Part shown: in pieces, positions 11,752 to 48,891 of the stretch | How the letters are laid out: each line of letters begins with the position of its first letter | Numbering within the stretch: the stretch's first letter is position 1 | Source: a bacterium | GTDB lineage: Bacteria > Patescibacteriota > JABMPQ01 > JBDRIV01 | Direction: 5' to 3' | NCBI GenBank assembly: GCA_043815505.1 | Contig: JBDRIV010000004.1 | Coordinates: 186,051 to 250,050 of the forward strand | DNA length: 64,000 bases | Made by a program: the position numbers and the translations under genes | Notes under the pieces: generated by a model | The model's database searches: none | Told to the model about the DNA's origin: nothing | What the model saw: the letters and a program-made list of their open reading frames with translations, nothing else

Positions 11752-11949
11752 ATGAATTTATTAAAAGTTGCTTATATTATACAAGAAAATATGAATATGA
11801 GAAAGCCCAAAAACTTGCTATTTCTTAGTAAAATACTAGACTTAAAGCACGTACCTTTACAATTTGATTCGATTTAAGCTTGAAGTATATAACTTATCTT
11901 TAAAATACCAACTTCAAAGTAGCAAAAACATGCTAATAGGAGAAGAAGC

Positions 11950-13998: not shown

Positions 13999-15273
13999 CT
14001 ATTCATCGCTCCTAAGAACCCCTATTTCTGGCACTGTAAGAATCACTTCATCATTATCACTTGTTCCAATTTTCATTATTTGAACAGGATATCCTTCATC
14101 AGCACAAGCATTTATTTCTATGTTCCCTTCATCTTCTAGCACATTATTTTTATCGTATGCTTGATACTCAATTTGTGCCAGCCAAGGAAATGATTCATAA
14201 CAATGTCTAACTGAAGGATCTTCAATTGATTCCATTCCTAAGTATTTAACGTCAGTTCTTCCACCATCTTTTCTATCAAAACTTACTTCATTATATTCAG
14301 AATCGTTTCTCATATTTACAAACACACCCGCATTCACACTATTTGTCGAACTGGCAATTTCTGGAACCGTTATTATAATTGAGTAGGCTCCATAATCTCC
14401 AATTCGTAGAATTTCTATTTTTTTACCAACTTCACAAAACTTAACTTGAATATCTTGCTCTCCTGGTTCAATGACATCACCATTATCATCATATTCGGTA
14501 TAGGTAAAGTTTGCTTGCCAGGGATATCTTTCTTCACAAGTTGTTTCGCCTTCATATTCTTCCAAACCATTGTATAGAATTTCAATCTTTCCACCTTCAG
14601 CTGTATTGAATATTGAGTGTTTTTCATCAAATCTATTTGTTCTCACAACATACCCAGTTTTAGCAATATTTCTAAACTTATAATTATTATCCTTCTGCGG
14701 TGTTCCTAGAACAGGATTTCCTGGAACAACCTTTGTTACCATTGTATTAGGTTCATCGCTCCCATCAACCGTAGCTTTAAGTGTCATAGTTTTAATATCA
14801 CCACCATAAATCAAACAAGGGCCCTGAGGATAAGTTCCATTTGACCATTGAAGATCACCATCTGCATCATACGCAAACTCAATAATACCTGGTGATTCAG
14901 GATAATCTTGCTGACAAACAGTTTCACTAACATCAGATATTTGTCCGTCAAAGATAAATTCTATTCTACCAGCAAGATCATTATAATCTGTAAAACGATA
15001 ATTTGTTGCATAGTCTTCATTCAAACTATAAGCTTTTCCTAATTCATCAATTTTTACAGCCTTTTTTATACCACCAACTTCCAAACCATTTGTTTCAGAA
15101 TCTTGTGCAACACTAAAATTTTGATGAATCAGAGAATAAGCTGGCACTAAACCCATAGCTATTGCTGACACCAAAAAAACTGACCACACCATTACTTTCA
15201 TACTAATTTTTGTTGATGTTTTTTGTTTTGTTTTTGTTTGATTTGGTATATTTTCTTGGTTATTTTTTGGCAT
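13999..15273 (-). CDS. secreted repeat protein with the conserved 'MPKNNQENIPNQTKTK' leader and three or four ~90-aa Cys-bracketed internal repeats
   Basis: The N-terminal 16 aa and upstream DNA are near-identical to those of 10093..11751. Internal repeats include 'C..YP....EF.Y.ADGD..' modules. Confidence 0.6.
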   Translation of the reverse strand: MPKNNQENIPNQTKTKQKTSTKISMKVMVWSVFLVSAIAMGLVPAYSLIHQNFSVAQDSETNGLEVGGIKKAVKIDELGKAYSLNEDYATNYRFTDYNDLAGRIEFIFDGQISDVSETVCQQDYPESPGIIEFAYDADGDLQWSNGTYPQGPCLIYGGDIKTMTLKATVDGSDEPNTMVTKVVPGNPVLGTPQKDNNYKFRNIAKTGYVVRTNRFDEKHSIFNTAEGGKIEILYNGLEEYEGETTCEERYPWQANFTYTEYDDNGDVIEPGEQDIQVKFCEVGKKIEILRIGDYGAYSIIITVPEIASSTNSVNAGVFVNMRNDSEYNEVSFDRKDGGRTDVKYLGMESIEDPSVRHCYESFPWLAQIEYQAYDKNNVLEDEGNIEINACADEGYPVQIMKIGTSDNDEVILTVPEIGVLRSDE

Positions 15274-15426
15274 ATGAATTTGTTAAAAGCTGCTTAAATC
15301 TTATTAAAAAACCACCCAACTCCAGTTTTTTTAAATTAAACTTACTATATTTTAATACAAAAAATTATAATTTTTAATGTTATTGCTACAAAAATGAAAC
15401 TGTGTCTAGACGGTTTTTTTTGAATT

Positions 15427-20057: not shown

Positions 20058-20061
20058 AATT

Positions 20062-32027: not shown

Positions 32028-33773
32028 CTAATTAGCAGATGGCATATCATCCCATACTTCTAAATCATCAATGCCGTGGTATATTCCTGCCGGCGGTGTG
32101 CCGTTGGAAAAATTAGCTTGGATGATAAAATGTCCAGCTTTTTCAATGTTGCCAAATTGACCACTATCGTCTATCCATTCTCCGGTCGCATTGTCTGCAG
32201 TTTCATTATCTTCATCAACCCAAATACGGGCAATAGCGGCATCAAAATCAAAGAAGAAAGACCATTTATGCCAATTACCATCATTAACATCTTCTACAGG
32301 AAAAGTGTCTAAGCCTGTGTTGGTTCCATATTGTAGTCTTACGTCAGTATCATCGCCATCAAAAATATCGTTAACAGTGGTGAGGAAAATTATATGAGAA
32401 TCTAATTCACTTTCATACGGATAACCGTATACTCTAATCCATTTGTTTTTTGGATAATAGGGGGGATTAGGCCACACAAAACCACTGTTGCGAGACCAGA
32501 ATCTGACAAACAGTTTTTCTGTATTAATATCTTCATCTATATCTAGACCGTTGGTGCTACAAGCCGAACCATTATATCCAATATTTCCTCTAACATTTAC
32601 CAAACCACAATCAATACCATCAACTTCTGGATTGAGAGGGATGTAGTTACCTTGGTCACAGGTAGTAGAGCTATCTGATCCACGGCTATCATTTTGCAGA
32701 AGGAAATAATTACCCGAATGTGGTGCCCAATTACTATAATTTTCTACAATTTCCGTAGCATGATCTTGCATACTACAATATTCCGGCTCACCGCTGGATA
32801 ATGGAAATCCTTCCGGTCGGGAATCAACTTCACCGCTAAAATTCTCAAACCCATAAGAGTAGAGCAGATTGGCATCACCTTGCTGTTCACAATCCTCAGG
32901 ACAAGTAACATAGTTCTCTCCTTCTTCACATTCACCATTGCCACATTCTGCTTCTTCACAATCAAAGTCCTCATCATCAATGTAGTTATCACAATCATTA
33001 TCAATTCCGTCGGAGCATTCAGTTTCGGTGGTAGTACATCTTTGTTCTAGGACTTGATAGACTACGTTACCCACTTTAGGGCGATAGTAAGAATCCCTTT
33101 TCAACCGAAAACCGAATTGAAAATATTGCCAGTCGTAAGTAACGGTAGAGGGAACTGATATAACATGAAAACCATTGGTTGTAATAGGAATGGAGTACCA
33201 AGACAAAGTACTGTCATCAACATCAGCTGCAAACTGTTCCTCTGATCCTCTAAGGAAAAAATCAAATTCGTTGTTACTACCAATAAATTTACTAAACTGA
33301 GAGAAATTGAGAGGAGAAAGGAGAGTAGTGAAAGCTACTTTAGAAAGACCGGTGGCGGCGCTGTCTTCATCACCAAGAGAATCAGTGTCTATTACTTCAG
33401 AAGTAACCTTTATAATTCCATTTTTAGCCGCAATAGCATTATTGAAACGAGGTAGTTGTTCATAATCTCCTTCTATATTAAAAGTAGTCATATCATAAGG
33501 AGTGTTGTGTTTAATATATTTACCGGGGACATAAACAGTGGGCTCACCACTAAGTCCACTGGCATCAAAGTTTGATTCTCTGATATCTTCGGGTGGAATG
33601 ATAGGAAGAACCGCTGCTCCAGCTACGGCCAGAGCAGAGATTATAAAGACACTCCAGACCATTAGCTTGAGGCGTTTTTTGGTTTTGGTTTGAGCGGTTG
33701 TTTGCTCTGTTTGGGTTTGTTTGACCATCATATTTTTGTTGTTATTTGTTTTATTTTGATTATTTTGAGACAT
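32028..33773 (-). CDS. secreted protein, paralog A of the 'MSQNNQNKTNNNK' leader family, with a Cys/Asp-rich 'DNDCDNYIDDEDFDCEE' putative metal-binding motif
   Basis: The N-terminal ~290 aa and the 5' DNA are near-identical to those of 44567..46609. The C-terminal part is unique. Confidence 0.65.
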   Translation of the reverse strand: MSQNNQNKTNNNKNMMVKQTQTEQTTAQTKTKKRLKLMVWSVFIISALAVAGAAVLPIIPPEDIRESNFDASGLSGEPTVYVPGKYIKHNTPYDMTTFNIEGDYEQLPRFNNAIAAKNGIIKVTSEVIDTDSLGDEDSAATGLSKVAFTTLLSPLNFSQFSKFIGSNNEFDFFLRGSEEQFAADVDDSTLSWYSIPITTNGFHVISVPSTVTYDWQYFQFGFRLKRDSYYRPKVGNVVYQVLEQRCTTTETECSDGIDNDCDNYIDDEDFDCEEAECGNGECEEGENYVTCPEDCEQQGDANLLYSYGFENFSGEVDSRPEGFPLSSGEPEYCSMQDHATEIVENYSNWAPHSGNYFLLQNDSRGSDSSTTCDQGNYIPLNPEVDGIDCGLVNVRGNIGYNGSACSTNGLDIDEDINTEKLFVRFWSRNSGFVWPNPPYYPKNKWIRVYGYPYESELDSHIIFLTTVNDIFDGDDTDVRLQYGTNTGLDTFPVEDVNDGNWHKWSFFFDFDAAIARIWVDEDNETADNATGEWIDDSGQFGNIEKAGHFIIQANFSNGTPPAGIYHGIDDLEVWDDMPSAN

Positions 33774-34052
33774 ATGATTATGCTAATAGTTGGTTTTATT
33801 GTAGCAGGAAATTGGCATTGAGTCAATGTTAGTTTTTTTATATTATTAAAATTAAACTATTTTTCTATCCACTTTTTGGCTAGGCAATTTTTATTCAAAA
33901 TTCAAGTTTCATACGTTAGTTTCTTAAAAAAAGTAAAACTGGGATTATAAATAATTGCCTTAAAATATCAAAATTGATTAATGTGCCAATTTGATTTATA
34001 CTTTAAGTAGAATATTTATCTTTTCACATTGTTATAATATAGGGAGATTACA

Positions 34053-34232
34053 ATGGCAAAATATGAAGATGAACCAGATATGACAAATGCAGCTTTCACT
34101 GTAAACACCAATCCTATCATCAATGGTAGCCACATTCCCAACAATATTCCTCGAATAACTCAAGGACACAAAATATTAGCAGAACTTAGACGCCTTTTAG
34201 AAGAGGCTGATGAATTTGACTTGTTAGATTGA
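34053..34232 (+). CDS. small hypothetical protein (59 aa)
   Basis: Not in the ORF track. It is preceded by a 'tataat' -10 (34033-38) and RBS 'agggag' 6 nt before the ATG. Stop is TGA. Confidence 0.45.
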   Translation: MAKYEDEPDMTNAAFTVNTNPIINGSHIPNNIPRITQGHKILAELRRLLEEADEFDLLD

Positions 34233-34466
34233 CCACTACAAAAAAGAAGTGATCAAGTATCATCCATATTTAAAAAAACCGGAACAGAATTATATCAATT
34301 TCTGTTCCCTTTTTTTACTTAAAATACAAACAGTTATAGTTTTTCCCGTTCTAATATGTTCACAGGATTATAAATAGAGTTAGTTTTATAAAATTTTGAT
34401 TATTTCCATCCTACTAAAAAAACCTCTAAATATTAGAGATTTCTTATTAATTCCACCTAAATTATA

Positions 34467-37400
34467 TTAAAATTCACTAGTTGTTATATTCAATCCCTCT
34501 CTCAAATTTTTATTATACACAAAGAAGCTCATTAAAACATTTGTCTCGGCATCAAAAGTCTTTACATGTGGACCTCCTCCCTGATCAGGAGCTGTTACTA
34601 TTTCTGCATTACCATCATTATTCATGTCGCCAACCGCTACATTAACTCCGCACGAATAATTTGAATCATAAGCAAAGAACGAAGATAATAATTTTGCATT
34701 TAACGGATTGAACACTTTAACATTAGGACCGTTTCCAGAGGAAACACCGGTTACAACCTCTACTGTTCCATCTCCTGTGAGATCTCCGGCTGCCACAGTA
34801 ACTCCGGTAAAATAATTTGTGCTATCATATGCTTTCCATTCTGATACTAATTCGGCTTGGTGATTAAATATTTTGACAGTAGCTGGAAAATAACCACCAC
34901 CACCAGAACCAACAATAATTTCTTCCCTGCCATTATTTGATGTATCACCAGTAGTTATGTATCCAGCTGCTCTTCCTGTATCTGGATAGGCAAAAAAACT
35001 ACTAAGCAGCTTTCCGGTTTGATCCCAAATTTTTACGTGAGCAGGAGCAGCTTTAGCAGGAATTGTAATTATTTCCTTTTGGCCATTACCATTTGTGTCT
35101 CCAACAGCCACTTTTATTCCAAAACGGGCATTGGAGCTATATGCCATGAATTGACTAAGAAGAACCCCATTTTGATCAAATATTCTAACTTGAGGTCCTC
35201 CTCCTCCACCTGGACCTGTTACTATTTCTGTTTTGCCATCCATGTTTAAATCTCCTGCCGCTACATTTACCCCGAATCGATAATTTGAATCGTAGGCAAA
35301 AAAAGTGGTTAATGGATCACCATCTTGATTATCAAAAACACTAACTTGGGGGCCATCACCCTGTCCGGCACCAACAACAATATTATGTGAACGTTTTAAA
35401 TTGGTCATGGAAACTGACGCCGATTTCGTATTATTTGCAAGATTACTATCTTCGCCATCACTAGAAACACTTACTGTGATAATAAAATCATTGGCTAATG
35501 AATTTGCATTTACAATAATTGTGATTTCATTCGCTTCTGCGCCGCTATCTATTATTGATGTCTCACAGGTTACTTCACCGTTCAATTCTTCACAGCTCCA
35601 GCCTGTTCCTGATGCTGAAATAAACGTGGAGTTTGGAGGTAGAATTATGGAAGCAACAACGTTTTCCGCTTCATCAGGACCATTATTGCTAATACTTATT
35701 CCGTAAGTAATGTTGTTTGTTGTCGGGTCCGCGCTAGTATTAATTTCCACTTTTAAATCAGTATTTTTATACGCTACCAAAACACTTTTTGAGGTAGTAT
35801 TATTTGTAATATCATCATCAGTGGTATTTGAACTTATAGTGGCTTGAGTAGTAATTGTCCCCTCTGTTTGAGGAGCTTTTATTTTTATAGAAATATTGTC
35901 ATTAGATGATGATTGCTTATTGAATATATTAATATTTTTTTCTTGCCTCCATATATCTACACTTGAACTGGCAGACAGAGATATTCTTGTACAAGTAACT
36001 TTCAAATTTGACTCATAACAACTCCAGCCGGTGCCAGAAGCAGAAACATATGTTGAACCTGATGGTAAGGTGGTTGTAGAAATTAAATTTTCGGCTTCAT
36101 TGGGACCATTATTGGTAATACTAACTGTATAAATAATTGAATCTCCCGGCTCGACGGATGAAGCGCTAGCATTGATTGATGTAGAAAGATCAGCTGATAA
36201 ACTATCATCATCTAATATAGTGTATGTATAATTTGTATTGGTGGTGGAATCACCACTCGCATCTCCAACTACAACATAGCTCGATGGATTCTGAAGGCCA
36301 AATATTATTGTTTCATTATTTTCTACTTTAGTATCGTTTTTAATAGTCAGAGGAATTGTCACCTTGGTTAGGGTTGTATAATCTGCGTTTGGTATAGTAA
36401 TTGTTTTGGGACTTGAAAATGTATAATCTGTTCCCGTTGTTGCCGTACCTCCCGTAACAGCTACTTTTATTGTTAATGTGCCACTATAACCAGTGGCATC
36501 TCCACCACTGACACTTAATTTAAATACTGGACTGGTTACCGTCTCTGACTTACTGTTTGTTGCCTTGGTAAATTCTACTGTTAAACCATCGTCCTCGGTA
36601 ATAGTAGCAGTTGCCGTTGATCGATTCGTTGTATCTTCATCGGCATCACCACTAATAGCACCGGCAGAGAAATTGTTCAGAGAAAGATTGATTGTTTCAT
36701 TCCCTTCCAAAAGATTATCGTCGGTTACAGTAATTGAAAAAGCTACAGATTGAACAGTTGTGTAATCTCCTATCGGGATTGTAACAGATATTGGACCAGC
36801 GACATAATCTGTTCCTGCTGTAGCAGTGTTATCAGCTAATACCACGTTCACACTTTCACTAGCTGCTATTATTCCTCCGCGCACACTAAGATTACCACTA
36901 ATAGAACCACTCGCCTCTGCTTCTGAGTAGGCTATATTATTGAACTCTACTAAAAGATAACTATGATCAGTAAAGTCTACTACGAAATCAGTCTTTGAAT
37001 AATTCGTAACATTGGCGGCCGAAGTTGTGTTGGTAAAGGCTCCATCTAGCCAGACTATTTCCAAATTAGATATATCGTCAGCATCAGTATGACTAGTAGC
37101 ATTACCAGTGAGGGAAACTTCTATGGTTGTTGCTCCTGTTCTATTTACCGAAGCACTTAGCCCTGCTGGTACATTGTTAACTTGAACATGAACACCAAGA
37201 GTTATTGGATCTACAAAGGTATCACCTGTTAAGGTAGCTGTGGTTGGATCATTGCCTATAGAGCCATCATTCGCTGCGTCCTCTGTAAAAGTAGTAACAT
37301 CATAAGCAATGCTTGGTTGATCAGCAAAGTCTACACCCAGAGAACTGGAAGCTGGTCCAGTAGCATTATCTACATTGGCTGCTGTAGTGGTATTGGTGAA

Positions 37401-40400
37401 AGCGCCATCTTGGAAAGCAAAAGTAATGTCAGCTACATCATCGGCATCTAAGTGATTGGTAGCATTACCAGTCAGAGTTAGAGTGGCTACTGTATCTCCT
37501 GCTGACAGGGTAATAACAGCGGTGAGTCCAGTTGGCACATCAGCTAATACCAGTTCTGTGGTTTCATCAAGAATATCATCAGTGTCTGTATCTTGATAAG
37601 TGTCACCTGTTAGAGTAGCAATAATTGATCCGGTGACGGAGCCATCATTGGCTGTGGCTTCAGTAAACCCTGCTCCTGTATAAGCAATGCTTGGTTGATC
37701 AGCAAAGTCTATTTGACCTGTATTGTCAGTATAACCAACAACATCACTGGCCGTTGCATTGTTTGTAAACACACCATCGACGAAGGTAACTGTAAGGTCA
37801 GCTACATCATTTGCATCCAAATGATTGGTGGCATTACCGGTGAGAGTAAGAGTTGCCACAGTAGAACTGGTTTTGGTTAACACTGCCGTTAAACCGGTTG
37901 GAACATTGGCTACAGTATAGTGGGTGGTTTCAGTAAAAGGATTACCATTGGCAATTCCAGCTATGTAGGTATCATTTGTTAGAGTGGCCGTTCTTGATCC
38001 CGTAACTGATCCATCATTCGCTGTGGCTTCGGTAAAATTTCCTGACCAGGCGATACTTGCCCCCCCTTCAGTAACAATAGAAAAATAATCACCGTCGGTA
38101 ACTGCGACGGTGTTCTTAGAATAAATGTTATCTGCTGCAATGGCATCGCCATTGCTCGCATCATCATAAAGTTGATACTCTATAGCACCACTAGAAAAAT
38201 CGCCATCAGCATCAACGAGAAGATAATAATTTGTTTGTGCAGCGGGAAGATCAAAGTCTGCGTCCTCTGCATCAATAGTAAATGTCACCGTACCAACATC
38301 GCCCGTTTCTTGAATTTTCCATACCCGGTCTAGAATTTCCCGACCTGTGGGGGCACCAGTTGTACTAAAGGTGGCAGCGCCATTATCATTTCCCCAAATA
38401 AGAGATTCTAGACTACCCTGATCTGTAGCTGAACCAATAGAAACAATTCCGTCTGCGTTTTCTGATTTTGAGGTAACTTGATTCAGTTCAGAATCAGTGT
38501 CTTCCTCTACACCCGCCACATCATTATGATAAGTCTGATTAACAGAGGCATCCCAAACTACGGTGTCATCACTTAAGACATAATCTCCTTCGTGAATACC
38601 ATCGGCGTTGGGAGCTTCAAAAGTGGTAGAGTCACCGTTATTGTCATTGGAGAGAGTAAGACCATATTTTAGCGCTAAATAGGATTCAATTTTTTGTAGG
38701 TCAGCTAAAGATACAGCATCGTCATAAACAATAGCTTCGGCGATTTTTCCGTCGAGGAAATTGGCGGAACGGTAAGCTCCGATTTGTAAATTACTAGTAG
38801 TACCTAAAAAACCCCCTGAATCAAGACCAGCATTTGCTTCCTCTTTCCCGTTAATATTAATAATCGTATCCACTAAACCGTTCCCATGCAACCCTGTCCC
38901 AATATAAGGCGTACTATCAAGTTGATCATTGGTGGTTTCTATGTCAAAGCTAGTACCATTACGTAAATTCATTCTTGCTGACCCGAGCCCAAAATTCATT
39001 GAATGGTTGCCGTTTGCTGGAGTTGATCCAGCAGAAATAAGGTTACCACTATAACTAGTATTATCACGAATAAAAACAACTACCTTAGTATAAGCATTAC
39101 CGTTGGGAATTATCCCTGCAGTTACCGTTTCCATATAATCGCTATTAGCGCCATTAAATTCTATTACGGGGTTAAAATTTATTAGATCAGTGGTTCCACT
39201 TTCATAAGTTGGTTCATTCCCACCAGGTGCTGAAACATCATTGCCGTAACCTGATTGATCTGACCAGCTGGTCAGATTGGCTCCGTCGATGACGGTGGAG
39301 GTTCCTGTATTTGCTTTAAGCCACCATTTTATGTTAGTTAAGACACCTCCAGGTGTACCGCTAATAAAATCAATAACAGCATCATCTTTCTCGTATCTTC
39401 CCACATCAATCGCTGACGCAGTTGTAGTAAAGGCGCCGTCTTGCCAAGTTATAGTTAGATCACTAACATCATCTAAATTATTATGATAAGTAGCATTACC
39501 AGTGAAAGTTAGGGTAGCAGTATCCCCAGGACCACTAACATTCATGACAGCAGTTAATCCAGCTGGTTTATTGGTCAAAATAAAGTGAACTCCTTCAGTT
39601 AGAGTACTGCCACCGTTAACAAAAGTGTCATCAGTGATAGTAGCTACAACTGATCCGGTAACTGACCCATCATTATTTGCACTTTCAGTGAAAGATCCGG
39701 AGTAAGCAATAAAGGGATCCATGGCTTCATCTATAAACGGATCGGCTGGTAAGTTATAAGTGCTGGAATCAGTTGGCACAGTTTCTCCGGCAGCGTCGTT
39801 GCTATCACCCAAACTAACTGTTACTGTTCCGGTGGCAGCCGCAGATAAAGTTATAGTAATTTCATCAGTAGCGGTACGATCAATACTATCGATGGCAACT
39901 GGGGTACCATTATTTTTAACTTCAAATCCTCCTAATCCAGATGTTGGCAAAAGAGGTAAATTGTCATCAGAGAAAGACATGGTAACCAAAGTATTAGTGT
40001 CATCAATAAAAGCATTGAGTAGTATGGGGCCACGACCATCAGAACCACCATAAAAATGTTCTTCTAGTGCTGCCCACCAACGATCAGCTGCAGTTTGTCC
40101 TTCAGCATCAGTAGTAAGATGAACACCATCAGCTAATGGCCCAAGATCATAGATTTGAGGTCCATAAAGAATACCAGCATTGTCATCCCAAGCTTCTATG
40201 GTAGCAGCACGGATACCACTAACATAATTGGGAGCTGTCCCTACTTGCCCGATTACTGCTGCCACCATAGGAGGAGCGCCGGGAAGATCAGCCGCCATGT
40301 CAGAAGCAACTTGATCAAACGCGGTATTATAATCATTTTGACTAACATTATTATTAGCATCTCGTTCTCCTTGATGCCACAAAACAGCTTTGACTGCATT

Positions 40401-43400
40401 AACTCCAGAATCAGTAACTTGCTGCTGCATATTCTCGTACTGTCCTGATCCAGTACCACCTTTTTTCCAATCTTCATCAGGAGTAACTAAACCAGTTGCA
40501 CTATCAGCAGTAGTAATAAAAGCAACTGGTACATCTTGGTTACCCATAATATGAGTTGCTAGTAATGGCCAAACGGAACCTTTTTCAGCTGGGTCAGGAT
40601 CGGTAGGGTCATTACCTTCTAACCAATTATCATCCTCGTCAAAAACAGCTGCTTTAAGTGAGGCATGGGAATAGCTTTTTTGGTTGGTTAATCGACCTTC
40701 AGCATTTGACTGGCCTGCTACAACATAAACATCACCGATGCCAACATCAGCGACTGTGTCTTGAGTATCAGTATCTGATTCACATCTTACTATCAAACTA
40801 CCTTGACCAGCTGATTGACTAGATAACGTTCCACTAAAAGTACCGCCTGCTAAACTACTGTCAATAGTAGCGTAGGCACCACCATTAAAAGAAGCTTCAG
40901 CATTATCACTATCACAGCCAACATAAGTACCAGTGATAGAAATATCAGCCTCATCACCACCATCGCGTTGATAAGTTTGATACTGAACTGGACTGGTAAT
41001 AATAAGAGAGGCTGAAGTTATAAAAGAAAAGTAATCACCATTATTAAAATCTATGGTTGCTTCTAAATTATCACCATTAACTGAAAGTGTGACTTCGCGG
41101 TCAGATGTGGCAAAGCTAGGATCAGTGTGTACTACCATTTTTTCCAAGTCCGCTACTGCAGCTGACGGAATAGATACGGTAATAGTCCCAACATCACCTG
41201 TCTCTTGAACTTTCCAAACACGAGCAACACGTTTGTTAGAAATCCCGTTATAACTTGCTGTAGCTGCTAGCGCGCCGCCATCATTACCCCAAATAAGTGC
41301 TTCTCCATCGTCTTGCCCAGTAGCACCAGATATGATAATTTTATCTTCACCATCACTATCATCAGCACTGGATTGAGTTTGGTCTAGAGCTGAAGTATCA
41401 TCTTGAGCAATTCCCGCCACATCATTATGATAAGTCTGATTAACAGAAGCATCCCAAGCTACGGTGTCGTCACTTAAGACATAATCTCCTTCGTGGATAC
41501 CATCGGCGTTGGGAGCTTCAAAGGTGGTAGAGTCACCGTTATTGTCATTGGAGAGAGATAAACCATATTTTAAAGCCAGATAAGATTCAACCTTTTGAAG
41601 ATTAGCTAGTGTTATGTCATCATCATAAATAATAGCTTCAGCAATCTTGCCATCGAGGAAGTTGGCGGAACGATAGGCGCCAAGCTGAATGGTGCCATTA
41701 CCATTGAAAGCGTGGGCACCAGTATTATCACTGACTTCCTCTTTACCATTAACATCAACAATAGCATCGGTAATGCCAGCGCCATATTTTGCCACGCCAA
41801 TATAGGGAGTAGCGATGCTTTGTGCTGTTGCGGATCCGATGTTTAGAGTAGTGATATGATATAAGCGCAACTGACTTATACCTGGTCCATACAAGAAAGC
41901 GTGAGTATCAGGTGTTGCCCCAGAGGAAATAAGGTTGTTGGCATAACCAGTGCTTTTAATTATATATACAGCTATTTTTGTATAAGCATTGTTACTACCA
42001 ATTATTCCCGTGGCGGCGGTTCCTAAATAATCGCTATTAGCGCCAGTAAATTCTATTACTGGATTAAAATTTATTAAATCAGTAGTTCCACTTTCATAAG
42101 TTGGTTCATTTCCCCCTGGCGCTGTGACATTATTGCCGTTACCTGATTGATCTGACCAGCTGGTTAGATTAGCTCCGTCGATGACGGTGGATGTCCCCAT
42201 ATCAGCTTTGAGCCAGAGTCCTAAATTTGTCATTACTCCTCCTGGTCCATCAGTTGGTGGTGTATCATTAGCAATCTGCCAAAAGCGATCTTCTTTTATT
42301 TTGATGGATTTTTCTTCTAGATTCATTGAAGGTGAAGAATTTTCATTTTTAAGTTCAAGAGGACCAATAGTATAGTATTCTGGAGAAATATCAGGAGCAT
42401 TAAAATCATAATTATACATTAAAGTATCACCTGCTACTGCCGAAACATTCCAAATAATTGTTTTACTATCTTTGGCTTCAGATATTCCTATAGCTCCTTC
42501 ATTAGAAAGATTAGATATCTCAAAACTATCTGGAACAACATCAACAATATTTCCCTGATAATCTTCGTTAAATTTAACCTCGAGAGTCATAGGAGTTGGT
42601 CCTAGAGGATAGTTCCTGGTAGCTGAAGTTCTTCTAACAACAAAATCAGGTTTATCAACTTCATCAAAAACATTGATTTTTGAACTAATAGTTTTTTCAC
42701 CGCTACCAATATCAGCTGTGAGTGTCATTAAGTATTCCCCTGCTTCGGTAAAAGTGTAATTGGCTTGGTAATCGGGAATAATGTGTCCTACTTCAAGAAC
42801 CTCACATTCTCCGGTATTTTGCACTTCTGGTTGATCAATAATTTGGTTAGGAGTGGTAATTTCTAGTCTTACTTCAGCATTACAAACTGGTACGCCAAAA
42901 TCATTAAGAACACCTATGTGAACATCCGCTTTTTCCCCAATCTGATAAGTATCTTTGTCAGTATTAACAGCCAAAACTCCCCAAACAAAGTCTTGAGTGA
43001 ATATTTTTGTATTTTTATTTTTTTGACTAGAAACAGTTGCTTCTAAAGTATAAAGTCCCGGAGTAAAAGATCGCAATGGTTTTACTATCATTACTACTGA
43101 TCCAGCTTGAAAACGAAGGTGGTCATTGGGAATGGTAAATTTATTTCCTTTAGTGTCAGTAACTGTGGCATCAACTTCCGCTTCGGTATCGTCAATAAGA
43201 ACAGTTAAAGCTTCCTCCTTAGTCAACTCATCTCCCGTCTTTTTGTCTGGAATACTATTTTCAGAAAGTTTAAATGCTGTTTCACCAGTAACTAAATTTG
43301 GAACATCAGCAATAACCTGGGAAGATGATATGTATTCCTTATCACTGACAAAATTATCGTTAAAAACGAAAAAATAAATGCTTCCCAAAATCAGCAGTAA

Positions 43401-43508
43401 TACACCAAAAATAATTGGTAAAATTGTATTTTTATTCTGGCCTATCTCCTCCTTACTAAAATAACCAAAAATGGTTTGAATTTTTCCTCCCACTTCAGTA
43501 TTTTTCAT
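34467..43508 (-). CDS. giant (3013 aa) surface adhesin-like multidomain protein (domains listed under evidence)
   Basis: N-terminal TM. Two LamG-like copies ('LWLKA..GTSTVIDGANLTSWSDQSG'). 'VVAGQSNAEGR' plus 'VLWHQGERD' SGNH/sialate-O-acetylesterase motifs. Calx-beta 'LADNTATAGTDY...LLEGNETI'. DUF11-like 'TVSITNNGPNEAEN' (x2). Seven or more FG-GAP-like 'FAYDSNYRFGVNVAAGDLNMDG' repeats at the C-terminus. Confidence 0.85.
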   Translation of the reverse strand: MKNTEVGGKIQTIFGYFSKEEIGQNKNTILPIIFGVLLLILGSIYFFVFNDNFVSDKEYISSSQVIADVPNLVTGETAFKLSENSIPDKKTGDELTKEEALTVLIDDTEAEVDATVTDTKGNKFTIPNDHLRFQAGSVVMIVKPLRSFTPGLYTLEATVSSQKNKNTKIFTQDFVWGVLAVNTDKDTYQIGEKADVHIGVLNDFGVPVCNAEVRLEITTPNQIIDQPEVQNTGECEVLEVGHIIPDYQANYTFTEAGEYLMTLTADIGSGEKTISSKINVFDEVDKPDFVVRRTSATRNYPLGPTPMTLEVKFNEDYQGNIVDVVPDSFEISNLSNEGAIGISEAKDSKTIIWNVSAVAGDTLMYNYDFNAPDISPEYYTIGPLELKNENSSPSMNLEEKSIKIKEDRFWQIANDTPPTDGPGGVMTNLGLWLKADMGTSTVIDGANLTSWSDQSGNGNNVTAPGGNEPTYESGTTDLINFNPVIEFTGANSDYLGTAATGIIGSNNAYTKIAVYIIKSTGYANNLISSGATPDTHAFLYGPGISQLRLYHITTLNIGSATAQSIATPYIGVAKYGAGITDAIVDVNGKEEVSDNTGAHAFNGNGTIQLGAYRSANFLDGKIAEAIIYDDDITLANLQKVESYLALKYGLSLSNDNNGDSTTFEAPNADGIHEGDYVLSDDTVAWDASVNQTYHNDVAGIAQDDTSALDQTQSSADDSDGEDKIIISGATGQDDGEALIWGNDGGALAATASYNGISNKRVARVWKVQETGDVGTITVSIPSAAVADLEKMVVHTDPSFATSDREVTLSVNGDNLEATIDFNNGDYFSFITSASLIITSPVQYQTYQRDGGDEADISITGTYVGCDSDNAEASFNGGAYATIDSSLAGGTFSGTLSSQSAGQGSLIVRCESDTDTQDTVADVGIGDVYVVAGQSNAEGRLTNQKSYSHASLKAAVFDEDDNWLEGNDPTDPDPAEKGSVWPLLATHIMGNQDVPVAFITTADSATGLVTPDEDWKKGGTGSGQYENMQQQVTDSGVNAVKAVLWHQGERDANNNVSQNDYNTAFDQVASDMAADLPGAPPMVAAVIGQVGTAPNYVSGIRAATIEAWDDNAGILYGPQIYDLGPLADGVHLTTDAEGQTAADRWWAALEEHFYGGSDGRGPILLNAFIDDTNTLVTMSFSDDNLPLLPTSGLGGFEVKNNGTPVAIDSIDRTATDEITITLSAAATGTVTVSLGDSNDAAGETVPTDSSTYNLPADPFIDEAMDPFIAYSGSFTESANNDGSVTGSVVATITDDTFVNGGSTLTEGVHFILTNKPAGLTAVMNVSGPGDTATLTFTGNATYHNNLDDVSDLTITWQDGAFTTTASAIDVGRYEKDDAVIDFISGTPGGVLTNIKWWLKANTGTSTVIDGANLTSWSDQSGYGNDVSAPGGNEPTYESGTTDLINFNPVIEFNGANSDYMETVTAGIIPNGNAYTKVVVFIRDNTSYSGNLISAGSTPANGNHSMNFGLGSARMNLRNGTSFDIETTNDQLDSTPYIGTGLHGNGLVDTIININGKEEANAGLDSGGFLGTTSNLQIGAYRSANFLDGKIAEAIVYDDAVSLADLQKIESYLALKYGLTLSNDNNGDSTTFEAPNADGIHEGDYVLSDDTVVWDASVNQTYHNDVAGVEEDTDSELNQVTSKSENADGIVSIGSATDQGSLESLIWGNDNGAATFSTTGAPTGREILDRVWKIQETGDVGTVTFTIDAEDADFDLPAAQTNYYLLVDADGDFSSGAIEYQLYDDASNGDAIAADNIYSKNTVAVTDGDYFSIVTEGGASIAWSGNFTEATANDGSVTGSRTATLTNDTYIAGIANGNPFTETTHYTVANVPTGLTAVLTKTSSTVATLTLTGNATNHLDANDVADLTVTFVDGVFTNNATASDVVGYTDNTGQIDFADQPSIAYTGAGFTEATANDGSVTGSIIATLTGDTYQDTDTDDILDETTELVLADVPTGLTAVITLSAGDTVATLTLTGNATNHLDADDVADITFAFQDGAFTNTTTAANVDNATGPASSSLGVDFADQPSIAYDVTTFTEDAANDGSIGNDPTTATLTGDTFVDPITLGVHVQVNNVPAGLSASVNRTGATTIEVSLTGNATSHTDADDISNLEIVWLDGAFTNTTSAANVTNYSKTDFVVDFTDHSYLLVEFNNIAYSEAEASGSISGNLSVRGGIIAASESVNVVLADNTATAGTDYVAGPISVTIPIGDYTTVQSVAFSITVTDDNLLEGNETINLSLNNFSAGAISGDADEDTTNRSTATATITEDDGLTVEFTKATNSKSETVTSPVFKLSVSGGDATGYSGTLTIKVAVTGGTATTGTDYTFSSPKTITIPNADYTTLTKVTIPLTIKNDTKVENNETIIFGLQNPSSYVVVGDASGDSTTNTNYTYTILDDDSLSADLSTSINASASSVEPGDSIIYTVSITNNGPNEAENLISTTTLPSGSTYVSASGTGWSCYESNLKVTCTRISLSASSSVDIWRQEKNINIFNKQSSSNDNISIKIKAPQTEGTITTQATISSNTTDDDITNNTTSKSVLVAYKNTDLKVEINTSADPTTNNITYGISISNNGPDEAENVVASIILPPNSTFISASGTGWSCEELNGEVTCETSIIDSGAEANEITIIVNANSLANDFIITVSVSSDGEDSNLANNTKSASVSMTNLKRSHNIVVGAGQGDGPQVSVFDNQDGDPLTTFFAYDSNYRFGVNVAAGDLNMDGKTEIVTGPGGGGGPQVRIFDQNGVLLSQFMAYSSNARFGIKVAVGDTNGNGQKEIITIPAKAAPAHVKIWDQTGKLLSSFFAYPDTGRAAGYITTGDTSNNGREEIIVGSGGGGYFPATVKIFNHQAELVSEWKAYDSTNYFTGVTVAAGDLTGDGTVEVVTGVSSGNGPNVKVFNPLNAKLLSSFFAYDSNYSCGVNVAVGDMNNDGNAEIVTAPDQGGGPHVKTFDAETNVLMSFFVYNKNLREGLNITTSEF

Positions 43509-43797
43509 TAAAAATGATTAATTATAAATTATGAAAGGATGCCCTTTCTTTATTGCAGTTTACATAAAAAATCTTTCCTAGTCAATCGTAAATATCCGCA
43601 ATTAAGGTATTTTTGATACTTATAACAATTTTCATCAGAATTGCAGTTTTTTTGTATATTAAAAGTTTGTCCGCCACCCGTCAACTGATGGGGGCAGAGG
43701 CAATTCTTTGTGTAATATTATGTGTCTTTTGCTAAAACTCGTATTGGGTGCATCTTAAGGGAGATGCTATTAGAAATAAAGTTATCTAACTATGTAA

Positions 43798-44353
43798 TTA
43801 TTTAAAATGTCTGGGGTATTTAAAATATGTTTGTACAATACCAAAAATTGAATCTCCGACCCATATTTCACCATTCTTTACCATCTCTAATGCTTTTTTG
43901 GAAGAAACTTTTAATACCTCAATCTCTTCTGTCATATCTAAATTCTGTTTGGAATTAAATTCCAGATCTTTGGCATAATAACAATGAGTTACTTGTTTAG
44001 TTTTTGTGGGATTACTTGATATTTTTCCTATAAATTCTAAATTGTCTTCTGTTGTTTTTAATACCCACCTCTTCTTCTAGTTCTACTAAGGCTGATTCTT
44101 TTAAAGTTCTATTCTTTTGTTGAAATCCTCCTGGCAATTCAATCATTGTTTCTCCTACTGCGTGCTTATACTATTTAACTAAAACAATCTCATTATTAGT
44201 TGTAATAGGCAACACCATTACAACATTACCTAGTGGGGAGAAAAAATAATCATCAATAATAGTTCCCTCTAGTAATTCAACCTCATGGCGAATAACAGGA
44301 AACCATTTACTTGGTGAAACGTCTTCTTCTTTTATTACTTTCCATTTTTTCAT
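43798..44353 (-). pseudogene. NUDIX hydrolase (ADP-ribose pyrophosphatase-like) disrupted by an in-frame TAG and a frameshift
   Basis: The N-terminus 'MKKWKVIKEEDV...VMVLPITTNNEIVLVK' stops at TAG. The frame then resumes 'YKHAVGETMIELPGGFQQKNRTLKESALVELEEEVG'. After a frameshift it continues 'LEFIGKISSNPTKTKQVTHCYYAKDLEF...EVLKVSSKKALEMVKNGEIW'. Confidence 0.6.
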
Positions 44354-44566
44354 ATATTTTGTTTAATCTTTCACTACACAAAACATTCTAAATGAAAGAC
44401 AATTTCATCTGCTTATTTGTTGAAATTTATTTCGTCATTCTGCCTCAAATTAGGATGCCATCAACAACACAAATTTTTTCCTACCGTACAGCAACTTGAA
44501 AACATCCTTAGACAAAAGATTAGTATTTCTTATAATTTCAGAACAAAAATTCTCACTTAGACAAAC

Positions 44567-46609
44567 CTACCTGTTATTTTCGTTCCCAATCTCTGCGTTC
44601 AAGTTTACATCATAGAAGTTTTTATATGAACCTCCGACTTGTTGTGTCCAAGTCCATTCCACTGGCCCACCATAATTCCACCACGTCTGATACCTCAATG
44701 GGTATTTACAACCACCTCTTTCCGCATCATAGTTGTCATCACTTGTTTGCCATGTTTCTCCCAAATCAGGTGACACCAGCATTTTAGGACGGCTTCTGTC
44801 ACCACAACTTCCCCCAGATATACCCGTGTCTTTACTGCTCCGAGATGCAACATATATTGTTTGACCGTCTGCTCCCAACCCAGGACTTGGATCACTATAA
44901 CCGCATGTCTCTTCAATTAATTGCCATTCAGTCCAAGTATCTCCTAAATTATCAGATTGTTTAAATACTAAGCCAGTATATGTCGCCGTACTTTGAGCAA
45001 ACACAAAGAGTTGATTAGCGCCTACTGTAAGAATTGCTGGATTGCTGGTGTTTTCATCTGACAAGGAAGTTCTTGTCCATGTTTCACCTTGATTGGATGA
45101 TTTGGCAAACCACAACTCTCTTTCTGGAGATGCCATTTCAGAATAAGTTGCCACCAACACATTTTCAGAAGTAACCTCAAAATGAGGGTAATAGAATATA
45201 CCACTGCCAGAACTTACGGTATATGGATCTGACCAGTTGTTTCCTCCATCTATTGACTTAAGTAAATATATTGGCTCATTAGATGAACCCCAATGAGTTG
45301 CAACATATAACGTTCCTGATTCATCTACGGTAGCATTCACGCTTCTATATACCCCAGTTGATGATTCTGACAAACTGGAATTCGTATATATTGTCTGTGG
45401 TGAAGGAGGTGTTTCATTATATCCAAATTTGACCATTTTCAAATTATCACCATCTCTATAAAAATGATAAACCATTTCATTGGGCCCAGAAATTAAACTG
45501 CTGGAGTAAATACCATCAGTATCTATGCGTGTCCAAGTTTCACCGTTATCAGTGGAACGATAAGTATGGTCATAACTACCAGCACTGGCCAAGGTAACTA
45601 TAGTATCATTAATTCTAACCATTCTACGCCCACCAGAGTTATAATGGCAGTTATTTGAACTTATAGTTGAATCAATAATGATTGGTTCGTGTTCATACCA
45701 ACCGCCTACTATCTCTTCACAATCCTCAGGACAAGTCTCGTGATTTTCCCCTTCCTCACAAACATCATTACCACATTCATTAGTAACTTCTTCACAATCA
45801 AAGTCCTCCTCGTCAACAAAGCTATCACAGTCATTATCTAAGTTATCTGTGCATTCAGTTTCTGTGGTGGTACATCTTTGCTCTAAGACTTGGTAGACTA
45901 CGTTACCCACTTTAGGGCGATAGTAAGAGCCTTTGTTGAGACGGAAGCCAAATTGGACATATTGCCAGTTGTAGGTAACGGTAGAAGGAACAGAAATAAC
46001 ATGAAAACCATTGGTAGAAATGGAAGTTGAATACCAAGGGACAATACTATCATCGGTAGTAGCATCAAACTGTTCGTCTGTTCCTCTAAGAAAGAATTCT
46101 AATTCATTGTTACTACCTAAGAAATTGCCAAATAAGGAAGAATTAAGAGGTGAAAGTAAGGCGGTGAAAGCTACCTTGGAGAGACCAGTAGCAGCACTAT
46201 TTTCATCACCGAAGGAAGCGGTGTCTATTACCTCTGAAGTTACCTTAACTATGCCATTATTATTTTCAATGGCGTTGTTGTAACGAGGTAGTTGTTCGTA
46301 ATCTCCTTCTATATTAAAAGTAGTCATATCATAAGGAGTGTTGTGTTTAATATATTTACCGGGGACATAGACGGTTGGTTCTCCTGATAGTTCGTCGGCT
46401 TGGAAGTCTGATTCTCTGATTTCTTCTTTGGGGATAACGGGGAGAACGGCTGCTCCAGCTACGGCTAGAGCAGAGATTATAAAGACACTCCAGACCATTA
46501 GCTTGAGGCGTTTTTTGGTTTTGGTTTGAGCAGTTGTTTGCTCTGTTTGGGTTTGTTTGACCATCATATTTTTGTTGTTATTTGTTTTATTTTGATTATT
46601 TTGAGACAT
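44567..46609 (-). CDS. secreted protein, paralog B of the 'MSQNNQNKTNNNK' leader family: shared N-terminal module + 'DNDCDSFVDEEDFDCEE' motif + C-terminal BNR/Asp-box beta-propeller
   Basis: Five Asp-box repeats: 'STDNGETW', 'SIDGGNNW', 'SSNQGETW', 'SDNLGDTW', 'SPDLGETW'. Confidence 0.7.
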   Translation of the reverse strand: MSQNNQNKTNNNKNMMVKQTQTEQTTAQTKTKKRLKLMVWSVFIISALAVAGAAVLPVIPKEEIRESDFQADELSGEPTVYVPGKYIKHNTPYDMTTFNIEGDYEQLPRYNNAIENNNGIVKVTSEVIDTASFGDENSAATGLSKVAFTALLSPLNSSLFGNFLGSNNELEFFLRGTDEQFDATTDDSIVPWYSTSISTNGFHVISVPSTVTYNWQYVQFGFRLNKGSYYRPKVGNVVYQVLEQRCTTTETECTDNLDNDCDSFVDEEDFDCEEVTNECGNDVCEEGENHETCPEDCEEIVGGWYEHEPIIIDSTISSNNCHYNSGGRRMVRINDTIVTLASAGSYDHTYRSTDNGETWTRIDTDGIYSSSLISGPNEMVYHFYRDGDNLKMVKFGYNETPPSPQTIYTNSSLSESSTGVYRSVNATVDESGTLYVATHWGSSNEPIYLLKSIDGGNNWSDPYTVSSGSGIFYYPHFEVTSENVLVATYSEMASPERELWFAKSSNQGETWTRTSLSDENTSNPAILTVGANQLFVFAQSTATYTGLVFKQSDNLGDTWTEWQLIEETCGYSDPSPGLGADGQTIYVASRSSKDTGISGGSCGDRSRPKMLVSPDLGETWQTSDDNYDAERGGCKYPLRYQTWWNYGGPVEWTWTQQVGGSYKNFYDVNLNAEIGNENNR

Positions 46610-46639
46610 ATGATTATGCTAAGGATTGATTTTATTATA

Positions 46640-46747
46640 ACAAAAAACCGCCCTTCTGTATATTGCTTGCTCTGCTTGTCCCGAATTATTTTGAGGGGAG
46701 CTTATCGAAGAAGTTTACTCTGAGTTTATCGAAGAGGCGATTCTTTG
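46640..46747. repeat. cassette-array repeat, copy R0 (terminator module with an internal direct repeat)
   Basis: 'caaaaaaccgccc...gagtttatcgaagaggcgattc' is shared with copies R2 and R4. Confidence 0.6.
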
Positions 46748-46765
46748 TTTATTATAGACGATTTG

Positions 46766-47074
46766 CTAGAGATTTAATTCTTTTTCAGTAACAATACCCT
46801 TTGCAATTAAAACTTGCTTGATCTTTTCAACACGAGCTGCAATGATTTTAGAATCTTCATACCACCTTTCGACAGTTTTAATTAGATTGTCTATTGAGTT
46901 AGTAAGATTATCTATCTTCTTGCTTAAAGGTTTAACCTCTGTTTCAAAGCGCCTATTTACCTCTTCTGTTAAACTGTCAATTTTATTATCAACGCTGTCA
47001 AACTCTTTTTTAAATATCCTTGCTAGTCCTTCAAGGCCTTTGTCCAGTTCTTTTTTAGTTAGTGGTTCTGCCAT
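46766..47074 (-). CDS. small coiled-coil protein (cassette gene, paralog 1)
   Basis: The N-terminus 'MAEPLTKKELDKGLE' and ~150 bp of upstream DNA are identical to those of 47884..48225. Confidence 0.6.
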   Translation of the reverse strand: MAEPLTKKELDKGLEGLARIFKKEFDSVDNKIDSLTEEVNRRFETEVKPLSKKIDNLTNSIDNLIKTVERWYEDSKIIAARVEKIKQVLIAKGIVTEKELNL

Positions 47075-47096
47075 TTTGATTGATTAAAGTAGTAAT

Positions 47097-47124
47097 AGTA
47101 TATCAAATCGGTTTTCAGTGTCAA
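47097..47124 (-). promoter_or_regulatory. sigma70-like promoter TTGACA-16-TATACT for 46766..47074
   Basis: Minus-strand 'TTGACActgaaaaccgatttgaTATACT', ~22 nt upstream of the ATG. Duplicated exactly at 48248..48275. Confidence 0.5.
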
Positions 47125-47140
47125 ACACTTTGGAAGTGAA

Positions 47141-47286
47141 TCACTTGGCAACTTTGCTTATTGGCTTAAGTGTCGCTTGCCCGCGGATGCGGGACGCAGC
47201 CAGTTTACTCGCCGATTGCAAAGCAATCAAGGGGTGAACGTTGCCTGCCCGCTCCAAAACTTTAGTGAAAAAGGGTTAGAACAAGG
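47141..47286. repeat. cassette-array repeat, copy R1 (B-core tail + diverged C module)
   Basis: 'tcacttggcaactttgcttattggc' ... 'gggttagaacaagg'. Confidence 0.6.
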
Positions 47287-47421
47287 TTAATAGATATACC
47301 AAGCTCTAGTCTTTGACAATTCTCACACTATATACTACATTATATAGTCAATGAGTGACAAAACCTGTTTTTTAATTATATCACTTAGGACAAAATGTTC
47401 TCTTTATTGGAGGAAAAGACT

Positions 47422-47691: not shown

Positions 47692-47883
47692 ACTATCTCA
47701 AATACTGCTAGTGGTTCTTCTAAATGAGACCCTTGTATTTATTTCAACTTCAATTGTGAAGATGGAATGATGCATGGGTTTTTTTGTCAAAAAACCGCCC
47801 TTCTGGCTATCAAGCTTGCTCTGAGCTTGCCGAAGAGGCGATCTTCTTTCAGGTGAACAGTTTTTTGTTTATTAACTCTTTTA

Positions 47884-48225: not shown

Positions 48226-48291
48226 TTTGATTGATTAAAGTAGTAATAGTATATCAAATCGGTTTTCAGTGTCAAACACTTTGGAAGTGAA

Positions 48292-48827: not shown

Positions 48828-48891
48828 AACAACAAATCAGGCTGCTTCTTTTGAAGCTACAACGACCCGCCATATAAGAGGTCGTTTTTAC

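Follow-up and report, generated by a model that had tools for sequence, protein, structure and literature searches.

A rare, lineage-restricted family of modular proteins with near-identical 5' gene ends in a Patescibacteria contig

Four genes, here called A, B, C and D, are described from a 64,000-nucleotide (nt) stretch of contig JBDRIV010000004.1 of a bacterium of the candidate phyla radiation (CPR, or Patescibacteria); this whole stretch is referred to as the window. All four open reading frames (ORFs) are confirmed as full-length and lie on the minus strand, as do nearly all genes of the window, whose G+C content is about 35% (Table 1). By exact look-up, the window proteins are proteins of a metagenome-assembled genome (MAG) at NCBI, with locus tags ABIE68_* and all on one contig of 255,102 bp. 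The top matches of the BipA gene at 18276-20165 all come from Parcubacteria-type CPR bacteria, among them a Patescibacteria MAG (82% identity) and a Candidatus Colwellbacteria MAG (78%). Direct computation established the homology, where near-identical tracts begin and end, by how much they exceed expectation, how rare the family is and to which fold class its common domain (the N-domain) belongs.

Table 1. Features of genes A to D and of the large gene between A and B, in window coordinates
Feature	Coordinates	Strand	Content or basis
Gene A, 581 residues, NCBI MFH1509494 (hypothetical)	32028..33773	-	leader, N-domain, acidic disulfide repeat, CGNG Cys knot, C-terminal domain (residues 299-581)
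Gene B, 680 residues, NCBI MFH1509499 ('sialidase family protein')	44567..46609	-	first 293 codons in common with A, then BNR/Asp-box beta-propeller
Gene C, 552 residues, MFH1509472	10093..11751	-	C/D-type leader, N-domain (residues 72-237), acidic disulfide repeat (~238-266), alpha/beta-hydrolase esterase (~295-525)
Gene D, 424 residues, MFH1509474, ABIE68_04885	13999..15273	-	family leader, then orphan ectodomain with internal Cys-containing repeats; no N-domain
N-domain (predicted beta-sandwich/jelly roll)	A 33039..33551 (residues ~75-245); B 45875-46387; C 11041-11538	-	profile search, AlphaFold2, Foldseek
Acidic four-Cys motif, C-x6-C-x-D-G-I-D-N-D-C-D-N-Y-I-D-D-E-D-F-D-C (A)	A 32952..33038; B 45788-45874; C 10954-11040	-	NF033662 and regular expression
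Second Cys knot, 'ECGNGECEEGENYVTCPEDCE' (A)	A 32886..32948; B ~45716-45780	-	last element common to A and B; absent from C
Promoter-like site of A, TTGACT-17-TACAAT, TG before the -10 hexamer	33798..33826	-	consensus match only
Promoter-like site of B, TATACA-17-TATAAT	46634-46662	-	ATG offset same as in A; consensus match only
A copy of the A/B 5' tract (-33 to +162)	33612..33806	-	-10 box, short 5' untranslated region, polar n-region, most of the hydrophobic segment
B copy of the A/B 5' tract	46448..46642	-	BLASTN and alignment
Internal 71-nt identical patch, codons 81-103	A 33463..33533; B 46299-46369	-	run of 23 identical third positions
C copy of the C/D 5' tract (-26 to +64)	11688..11777	-	85/90 nt identical, exact run of 57 nt
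D copy of the C/D 5' tract	15210..15299	-	85/90 nt identical to C
Giant surface protein, 3013 residues, between A and B	34467..43508	-	SASA (sialate O-acetylesterase-type), Calx-beta, DUF11 and FG-GAP domains (Pfam); n-region of 25 residues

A preliminary description of this DNA, made from its letters and translations, had proposed that a common N-terminal part is joined to different C-terminal domains, and Pfam and BLASTP bear this out: B ends in a BNR propeller and C in an esterase, while the C-terminal domain of A has no assignment. The BNR/Asp-box beta-propeller of B is recognised both by Pfam BNR_2, which scores 42.9 bits over residues 443-638 against a cut-off of 31.4, and by the Asp boxes STDNGETW, SIDGGNNW, SNQGETW, SDNLGDTW and SPDLGETW in the translation. 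The name 'sialidase family protein' is an automatic NCBI annotation, and the sole PDB sequence relative of B is a propeller that is not a sialidase, the dispase autolysis-inducing protein (E 0.009). C is placed among the alpha/beta-hydrolase esterases by its gathering score, with BD-FAE at 91.3 bits (cut-off 26.8), COesterase at 68.2 and Abhydrolase_3 at 50.4. Gene A has no Pfam family at E<=0.01, its C-terminal domain finds at best a weak and unconvincing Laminin_G_2 match (E 0.12), and a PDB sequence search returned no relative for it; overall, Pfam and PDB sequence searches were uninformative for this domain, for the ectodomain of D and for the N-domain. In the D ectodomain a unit of about 65 residues, marked by a conserved Cys pair ('C-E/Y-E-x-[YF]-P-W ... 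TVPEI'), is repeated; two copies are 38% identical over 63 residues (E 1e-11), and a word-indexed search of 5.8e9 proteins retrieved only D itself.

A and B were said to have a common N-terminus of about 290 residues and to diverge completely after it, and both statements are confirmed. Self-BLASTN of the window aligns 32883-33806 with 45713-46642 at 81.6% over 930 nt, and the proteins are collinear for 293 codons (83% amino acid identity), free of gaps for 275 codons, of which the residues are identical at 228, and with one two-codon indel by codon 293. The homology ends exactly after '...TCPEDCE', the 3' edge of the second Cys knot, whose consensus CGN[GD]xCEEGENxxTCPEDC was found by regular expression in A and B only, and the DNA beyond is unrelated. 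In C, a motif DDDCDNYIDD had been pointed out; it is present, and C in addition carries the whole N-domain, which had not been described there, at 33% identity to A and 31% to B over about 190 residues (BLASTP E 6e-21 and 1e-19, respectively).

The N-domain, of about 170 residues, has no Pfam family at E<=10 and is under purifying selection in A and B. An AlphaFold2 model built from five sequences is a beta-sandwich with a predicted local distance difference test (pLDDT) score of about 80-90 in the core. A Foldseek comparison of this model with the PDB returned jelly rolls, mostly glycan binders, with E values around 1e-4 and template modelling (TM) scores of 0.35-0.57, including the Fbs1 sugar-binding domain, legume lectins, the N-terminal sandwich of a CE2 esterase and the carbohydrate-binding module (CBM) of Bacteroides BT0996, and it also matched Eph ligand-binding domains. 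The model points to a lectin/CBM-like jelly roll as the fold class, and to nothing finer. The acidic four-Cys motif that follows had been described as a putative MopE-like metal-binding motif, a label that we do not keep: the isolated motif segments of A and C have no Pfam match at E<=10, in a search in which HMMER filters may discard very weak matches, and the full proteins do not match the MopE-like model at E<=0.01. The best match is NCBIfam NF033662, the acidic double-disulfide repeat, to which residues 248-274 of A and 248-276 of B align at positions 2-28/30 of 32, with 22.6 bits (E 6.4e-5) for A, 23.5 bits (E 3.3e-5) for B and 12.1 bits (E 0.12) for C. The likeness lies in a highly acidic four-Cys segment of about 30 residues; the difference is that each protein carries a single copy and scores below the cut-off of 41 bits, which is out of reach because it is set for a whole protein and there is one repeat per protein.

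To assess how far the family extends, an N-domain profile was searched exhaustively with HMMER against 1.84e9 representative proteins, and its true matches are A, B, C and two further proteins only, P0005 and P0004 (E 1.4e-19 and 2.0e-19 for the two), while two more listed matches are weak (E 1.5e-4 and 5e-4) and lie in repetitive proteins. The exhaustive search was used because a word-indexed protein search with residues 1-298 of A missed even A, which is present as a cluster representative in that collection, so that this negative is unreliable and caution is due with other negatives of the word-indexed search on the window. P0005 (MFH1509451, ABIE68_04770) is encoded on the same contig about 20 genes before C, outside the window; its leader is separated from the N-domain by short repeats that span about 190 residues, and after the N-domain the protein has a stump of the Cys motif and lacks an enzyme domain. 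P0004 (EKD46200, ACD_68C00106G0001) comes from the ACD68 aquifer MAG; its sequence ends with its contig after 236 residues, past the N-domain, and by eye its upstream DNA has no obvious likeness to that of the window genes. No further carriers of the module appeared in scans of a genome collection, of metagenomes (two scans) and of viruses, and TBLASTN of A-D against 80 Patescibacteria BipA loci gave no matches; the closest of these loci have almost no synteny with the window, the matches being confined to BipA and a cupin gene. Taken together, these searches describe a genuine, very small family restricted to its lineage. The idea of a single N-terminal module needs to be amended: a common N-terminal part exists, but it is a composite of two separable pieces, the leader and the N-domain, since D has the leader alone and in P0005 the repeats, about 190 residues long, separate them.

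The leader is homologous in six proteins, namely A, B, C, D, P0005 and P0004. In all six it is built of 24-36 polar residues with a net charge of +3 to +8, the n-region, rich in Asn, Gln, Lys and Thr, followed by 20-25 uncharged residues that usually end in LP, and it has the conserved start [KR]x[KR]x[MF][VL]W[ST][VI]. A positive n-region followed by an unbroken hydrophobic segment is what a Sec-type signal peptide or signal-anchor has, and Ala-x-Ala-like sites are present within the hydrophobic stretch. From these features the leader is most likely a Sec-dependent signal-anchor with the N-terminus inside, or possibly a cleaved signal peptide; a membrane anchor would be favoured over cleavage because of the 20-25 residues of the uncharged stretch. 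Other classes of leader were considered and set aside: regular expressions for YSIRK, KxYKxGKxW, Tat, lipobox and prepilin motifs found none in the six leaders, and no NCBIfam signal-motif model matched at E<=1.

That the leader is unusual for this genome is supported by the position of its hydrophobic stretch, which starts at residue 21-33 in the family as against 0-5 in 16 other N-terminally hydrophobic proteins of the window. The possibility raised beforehand, that it is simply a common signal peptide, is not borne out, as the leader motif is absent both from the other exported proteins of the window and from 1.3 Mb around BipA in 80 other Patescibacteria loci. Within the leader, the n-region is the part least conserved between the subfamilies A/B, C/D, P0005 and P0004 (39-44% identity) and the part most conserved within each pair. 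D is a mosaic in this respect: its n-region DNA is 94% identical to that of C, but its hydrophobic segment (MVWSVF, MKVMVWSVFLVSAIA) resembles those of A, B and P0004 (MVWSVFIISALA, FVWSVFIVSALA) and not that of C (MLWTISLTSAFF).

Such a leader may be taken for a dedicated, lineage-specific sorting signal that sends its cargo to one site or by one export pathway of the cell and is portable between unrelated ectodomains and hence uniform, with a role like that of the YSIRK-G/S and KxYKxGKxW signal peptides of Gram-positive bacteria, which likewise have a long positive n-region and occur, within a narrow lineage, on only some of its exported surface proteins. This would agree with its conservation as protein sequence in all six members, one of them from a different MAG, with its presence on the otherwise unrelated D, with the ordinary short n-regions of the other exported window proteins, and with its absence from the other Patescibacteria DNA. 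However, D is the sole cargo without an N-domain, and the leader is otherwise nearly co-extensive with one family and perhaps conserved by descent; moreover, its n-region is poorly conserved across subfamilies, the window contains no candidate gene for processing or export, and no known sorting motif occurs in the leaders. Unlike those Gram-positive bacteria, the organism here is a CPR bacterium, and we know of no link between this leader and an accessory Sec system or septal secretion. We consider a dedicated sorting signal unlikely as the reason for the uniformity of these leaders.

The DNA at the 5' ends of the genes is near-identical in pairs. For A and B, near-identical DNA extends for about 195 nt from -33 to +162, with two differences in 162 coding nt and exact runs of 90 and 65 nt. 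It had been placed at about 33560-33790 and 46390-46630; the tract does exist but is narrower and shifted, running from 33806 to about 33612 and from 46642 to about 46448, and the segment 33560-33611, previously counted as near-identical, falls in the most divergent stretch of the whole alignment (codons 51-75, with 23 nt differences and a proportion of nonsynonymous differences, pN, of 0.225). The edge of the tract is sharp, at codons 54-56, and a second patch of 71 identical nt covers codons 81-103, about 240 nt inside the gene. By Nei-Gojobori proportions, codons 1-57 have a proportion of synonymous differences (pS) of 0.136 and a pN of 0, as against 0.57 and 0.12 for codons 58-275, with a pN/pS of about 0.2 overall. 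The 5' identity is therefore far higher than synonymous divergence elsewhere, the comparison on which the preliminary description had made its case depend.

Several tests agree on this excess. The binomial probability of two or fewer differences in 162 nt is 6e-15, or 4e-10 for synonymous sites alone. In a permutation of third positions, in which the longest identical runs are 25, 23 and 21 codons, P is 0.001 for the longest and <5e-5 for the second (23 codons), and the internal patch taken alone, with the first 54 codons excluded, has a P of 1.5e-4. Tract identity above synonymous divergence and sharp edges, the marks of gene conversion, are thus both found for A/B, at P values from 6e-15 to 1e-3 depending on the test, and chance is excluded as the source of the 5' identity.

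Upstream of the start codon, the 13 nt adjoining the ATG are identical in A and B, about 28/33 of the next nt match, and similarity reaches to about -33 and then stops. The claim of a common promoter and 5' untranslated region (UTR) accordingly stands for the -10 box and the short UTR, but not for a whole promoter region, as only about 33 nt are involved. The identity ends near -33 because a copy of an intergenic repeat (46640-46750) abuts the -10 box of B, and the -35 region of B sits within a terminator-like hairpin 3' of the preceding gene. For C and D, the leader and upstream DNA are shared as previously described, 11688-11777 matching 15210-15299 at 85/90 nt (94%), which comprises 26 nt upstream and the first 64 coding nt; the two proteins have only residues 1-46 in common. 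The 5' ends of all four genes are recognisably homologous, with a -10 box, a UTR of about 20 nt and the protein start M-[SP]-[QK]-N-N-Q, and the upstream DNA common to each pair amounts to about 33 nt (A/B) and 26 nt (C/D).

A third pair of neighbours is found just upstream of B, where two coiled-coil paralogs with weak DUF2120 matches ('MAEPLTKKELDKGLE...') are encoded at 46766-47074 and 47884-48225 on the minus strand. Their 5' regions (46973-47166 and 48124-48317) are 89% identical over 194 nt, of which about 89 nt are coding and about 105 nt upstream, and further in the identity is only 73%. As this repeats the pattern of A/B and C/D, neighbouring paralogs in this genome seem to be homogenised habitually, with a bias towards their ends.

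One may argue that the sequence, being a MAG contig, carries an assembly artefact, produced when strain variants were wrongly joined, or made uniform, at a repeat during metagenome assembly. The largest k-mers commonly used by assemblers exceed 90 nt, and the longest exact run shared by these genes is only 90 nt; in addition, there are four full-length open frames, each with a distinct upstream flank, and the window has three instances of the pattern (A/B, C/D and the pair of small coiled-coil genes). An artefact of this kind is very improbable. Equally improbable is that A and B arose by a very recent duplication whose true age is given by the 5' identity and that rapid positive selection then changed everything past codon 54. 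The peak of pN (0.225) directly after the identical tract, at codons 51-75, would fit such a history, but the downstream pS of 0.57 cannot arise from positive selection on protein, the overall pN/pS of about 0.2 indicates purifying selection, and the C-terminal domains of A and B are not homologous.

A more serious alternative is that the 5' near-identity is kept by purifying selection on the nucleotides themselves, as a regulatory or translational element or an mRNA structure, with no need for recombination. Such an element would join the common -10 box and UTR to an unstructured, A/C-rich region for translation initiation, in an organism with few Shine-Dalgarno sites. The first 105 nt of A, B and C have the lowest G+T content of all window genes (0.20-0.23 against a median of 0.52), and the layout of -10 box and UTR is recognisably common to all four genes. 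A Shine-Dalgarno site is absent from most window genes, many of which have a TTAA(C/T)-like motif about 10-14 nt 5' of the ATG, and this motif is found near -12 in A, B, C and D too; because most window genes lack a Shine-Dalgarno site, its absence from A-D is nothing special. The 5' region of A also folds better than its shuffles (z -3.8), and that of B less clearly so (z -2.6). However, neither C (z -1.8) nor D (z -1.1) has the predicted fold in common with them, which leads us to reject a conserved 5' mRNA structure, and the UTR differences between A and B weaken the predicted structure with no compensation. Moreover, the peptide TKTKKRLK is conserved in A and C with 5/8 codons synonymously different, the same difference separating A/B from C/D, so that the nucleotide sequence there is free to vary and is not itself constrained. 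Finally, the identity spans 54 codons through the hydrophobic segment and ends abruptly, and a second identical patch lies 240 nt into the gene. The TKTKKRLK codons, the pattern of n-region conservation and the mosaic structure of D favour recent recombination over selection at the nucleotide level, to which we give a small share of the probability.

The preliminary description had further suggested that module swapping or gene conversion generates diversity among surface proteins. The family and the conversion stand, by the contrast in pS and by permutation, but programmed diversification does not. There are no silent cassettes among the four genes, which are complete and each have their own promoter-like site; no inverted repeats were found near A-D by self-BLASTN of the window or in a repeat search of 46.5-55.4 kb; and a scan of about 40 window proteins turned up no recombinase domain, several ORFs beyond 53.9 kb lying outside that scan. 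Programmed antigenic or phase variation is therefore rejected for this locus. With these corrections, the interpretation by gene conversion and module sharing is largely right.

The evidence as a whole is probably best explained by a lineage-restricted, Sec-exported, modular glycan-active family, in which domains are shuffled behind a common promoter and leader and short-tract gene conversion makes the 5' ends alike; what we infer here is the topology on export, the binding of glycans, the specificity of the enzymes and how recombination proceeds. A, B, C, D and P0005 would descend from one ancestral promoter-proximal and leader sequence. The proteins would be exported by Sec; their charged n-region would remain on the inner side, and the long hydrophobic segment would either anchor the protein or be cleaved. 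The N-domain may then bind, outside the membrane, a glycan of the cell's own envelope or of a host surface. The acidic four-Cys repeat, together with the CGNG Cys knot in A and B, could serve outside the membrane as a disulfide-stabilised, possibly Ca-binding linker, at which domain shuffling would have attached distal domains that differ from gene to gene: for B a sialidase-like BNR propeller, for C an esterase and for A a domain without assignment. The duplication that gave A and B would be old, since the pS of 0.57 corresponds to about one synonymous change per site after correction. Recent and recurrent short-tract gene conversion would have acted since then between paralogs in direct repeat, C and D being 3.5 kb apart and A and B 12.8 kb apart, and the -10 box, 5' UTR and leader of paired genes would be alike almost base for base because gene conversion homogenised these ends.

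Several points weigh against this account. The conversion is inferred from a single genome, and the A/C-rich leader DNA and the 5' fold of A (z -3.8) leave some room for selection at the mRNA level. The fold matches of the N-domain are generic (TM 0.35-0.57, E ~1e-4), which makes glycan binding a plausible guess. In addition, B may be no sialidase, as what it shows of one is BNR_2 and the Asp boxes.

The closest known organisation is that of the erp genes (OspE/OspF/Elp, with their 'upstream homology box') of Borrelia burgdorferi, in which conserved promoter-proximal DNA and a leader precede exposed parts of independent origin. These genes have been described as one promoter, leader and localisation sequence joined to many unrelated, recombining sequences (PMC10016077). 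However, Erp proteins are lipoproteins with a lipobox, which no member of the A-D family has, and erp genes occupy allelic sites on cp32 prophage plasmids with defined operators and regulators, whereas A-D lie 3.5-13 kb apart on one CPR contig. Also unlike in erp, upstream sharing is limited here to about 26-33 nt, and three members share a domain of 170 residues as well. A second likeness is to the bab, sab and hom paralogs of Helicobacter pylori, where segmental gene conversion of RecA type leaves one segment near-identical within a genome while the rest diverges (PMC3960876). The likeness consists in segmental intragenomic homogenisation of paralogous surface-protein genes; the differences are that in bab/hom the 3' end is homogenised, functional chimeras alter adhesion and the products are beta-barrel outer-membrane proteins, whereas in the A-D family the homogenised end is the 5' one. 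The A-D family belongs to neither system, having no lipobox and no outer-membrane barrel and coming from another phylum. With enzymes that combine a CBM and a catalytic domain the family appears to share a beta-sandwich linked to differing domains, here a BNR propeller and an esterase, but its N-domain is without a Pfam family and has generic fold similarity only. We found no papers that join CPR with gene conversion, sialidase or the name of the acidic double-disulfide repeat.

The surroundings of the four genes are varied. Neighbouring genes encode ABC-2 transporters, heliorhodopsin, a DEAD-box helicase and VWA/zinc-ribbon membrane proteins, and tRNA and Rfam searches gave no match anywhere in the window. 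The SASA domain of the giant protein between A and B fits a glycan-processing theme, without being proof of it. The gene for this protein contains internal duplications, 38512-38780 matching 41413-41681 at 87% and 39019-39323 matching 41911-42215 at 78%. The repeat that abuts B belongs to a family present in almost every intergenic gap of 46630-55170, with nine copies of 'CCAAAAAACCGCC..GGCGATTYTTTGG', six of 'GTGGACGTTGTTAGAACCA' and three of a 74-nt unit. On the minus strand its core is predicted to fold into an A-tract, a GC stem, a loop and a U-tract, which resembles a bidirectional intrinsic terminator (z -2.6 to -3.6), with the loop enlarged to 26-80 nt in three copies; Rfam gave no match at E<=1 in the repeat-rich 46.5-55.4 kb. 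Between C and D, the sole long plus-strand gene encodes a B12-binding radical SAM protein (11950-13866); the stretch in which it lies has a G+C content of 0.43, compared with about 0.34, and the gene is among the few of the window to have a clear AGGAG site. The heliorhodopsin gene (22697-23494, minus strand, Pfam E 2e-101) stands beside an ABC-2 transporter pair. Self-BLASTN against the reverse complement of the window also revealed a perfect 30-nt palindrome at 2368-2397, in the gap between ORFs 1367-1927 and 2468-2977, and an 83-nt direct repeat with 76% identity (18163-18244 and 26455-26536) is found in intergenic or gene-end regions.

In summary, A-D and their relatives are a new and very rare protein family and a new CPR example of a well-known kind of surface-protein evolution. 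Because domain shuffling and the concerted evolution of the ends of paralogs are familiar from pathogens, its value is descriptive rather than conceptual. The N-domain is a domain family that had not been filed before, with five proteins among 1.84 billion representatives, and the atypical leader is a candidate localisation signal. It is conceivable, though rather improbable, that promoter and leader form a portable cassette whose long polar n-region and KKRLKxMVW(S/T)V start are recognised by a dedicated route or placed at a particular site, such as a zone of host contact, with conversion keeping the cassette uniform and grafting it onto new ectodomains, as apparently in D; if so, cassette grafting would be a simple way for a symbiont with a minimal genome to gain new surface functions. 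CPR bacteria live attached to other cells, have very small genomes and carry surface proteins that are mostly unannotated. For these organisms, the locus offers a concrete example of how surface enzymes may be built, with one start and one lectin-like domain reused before differing, putatively glycan-active domains.

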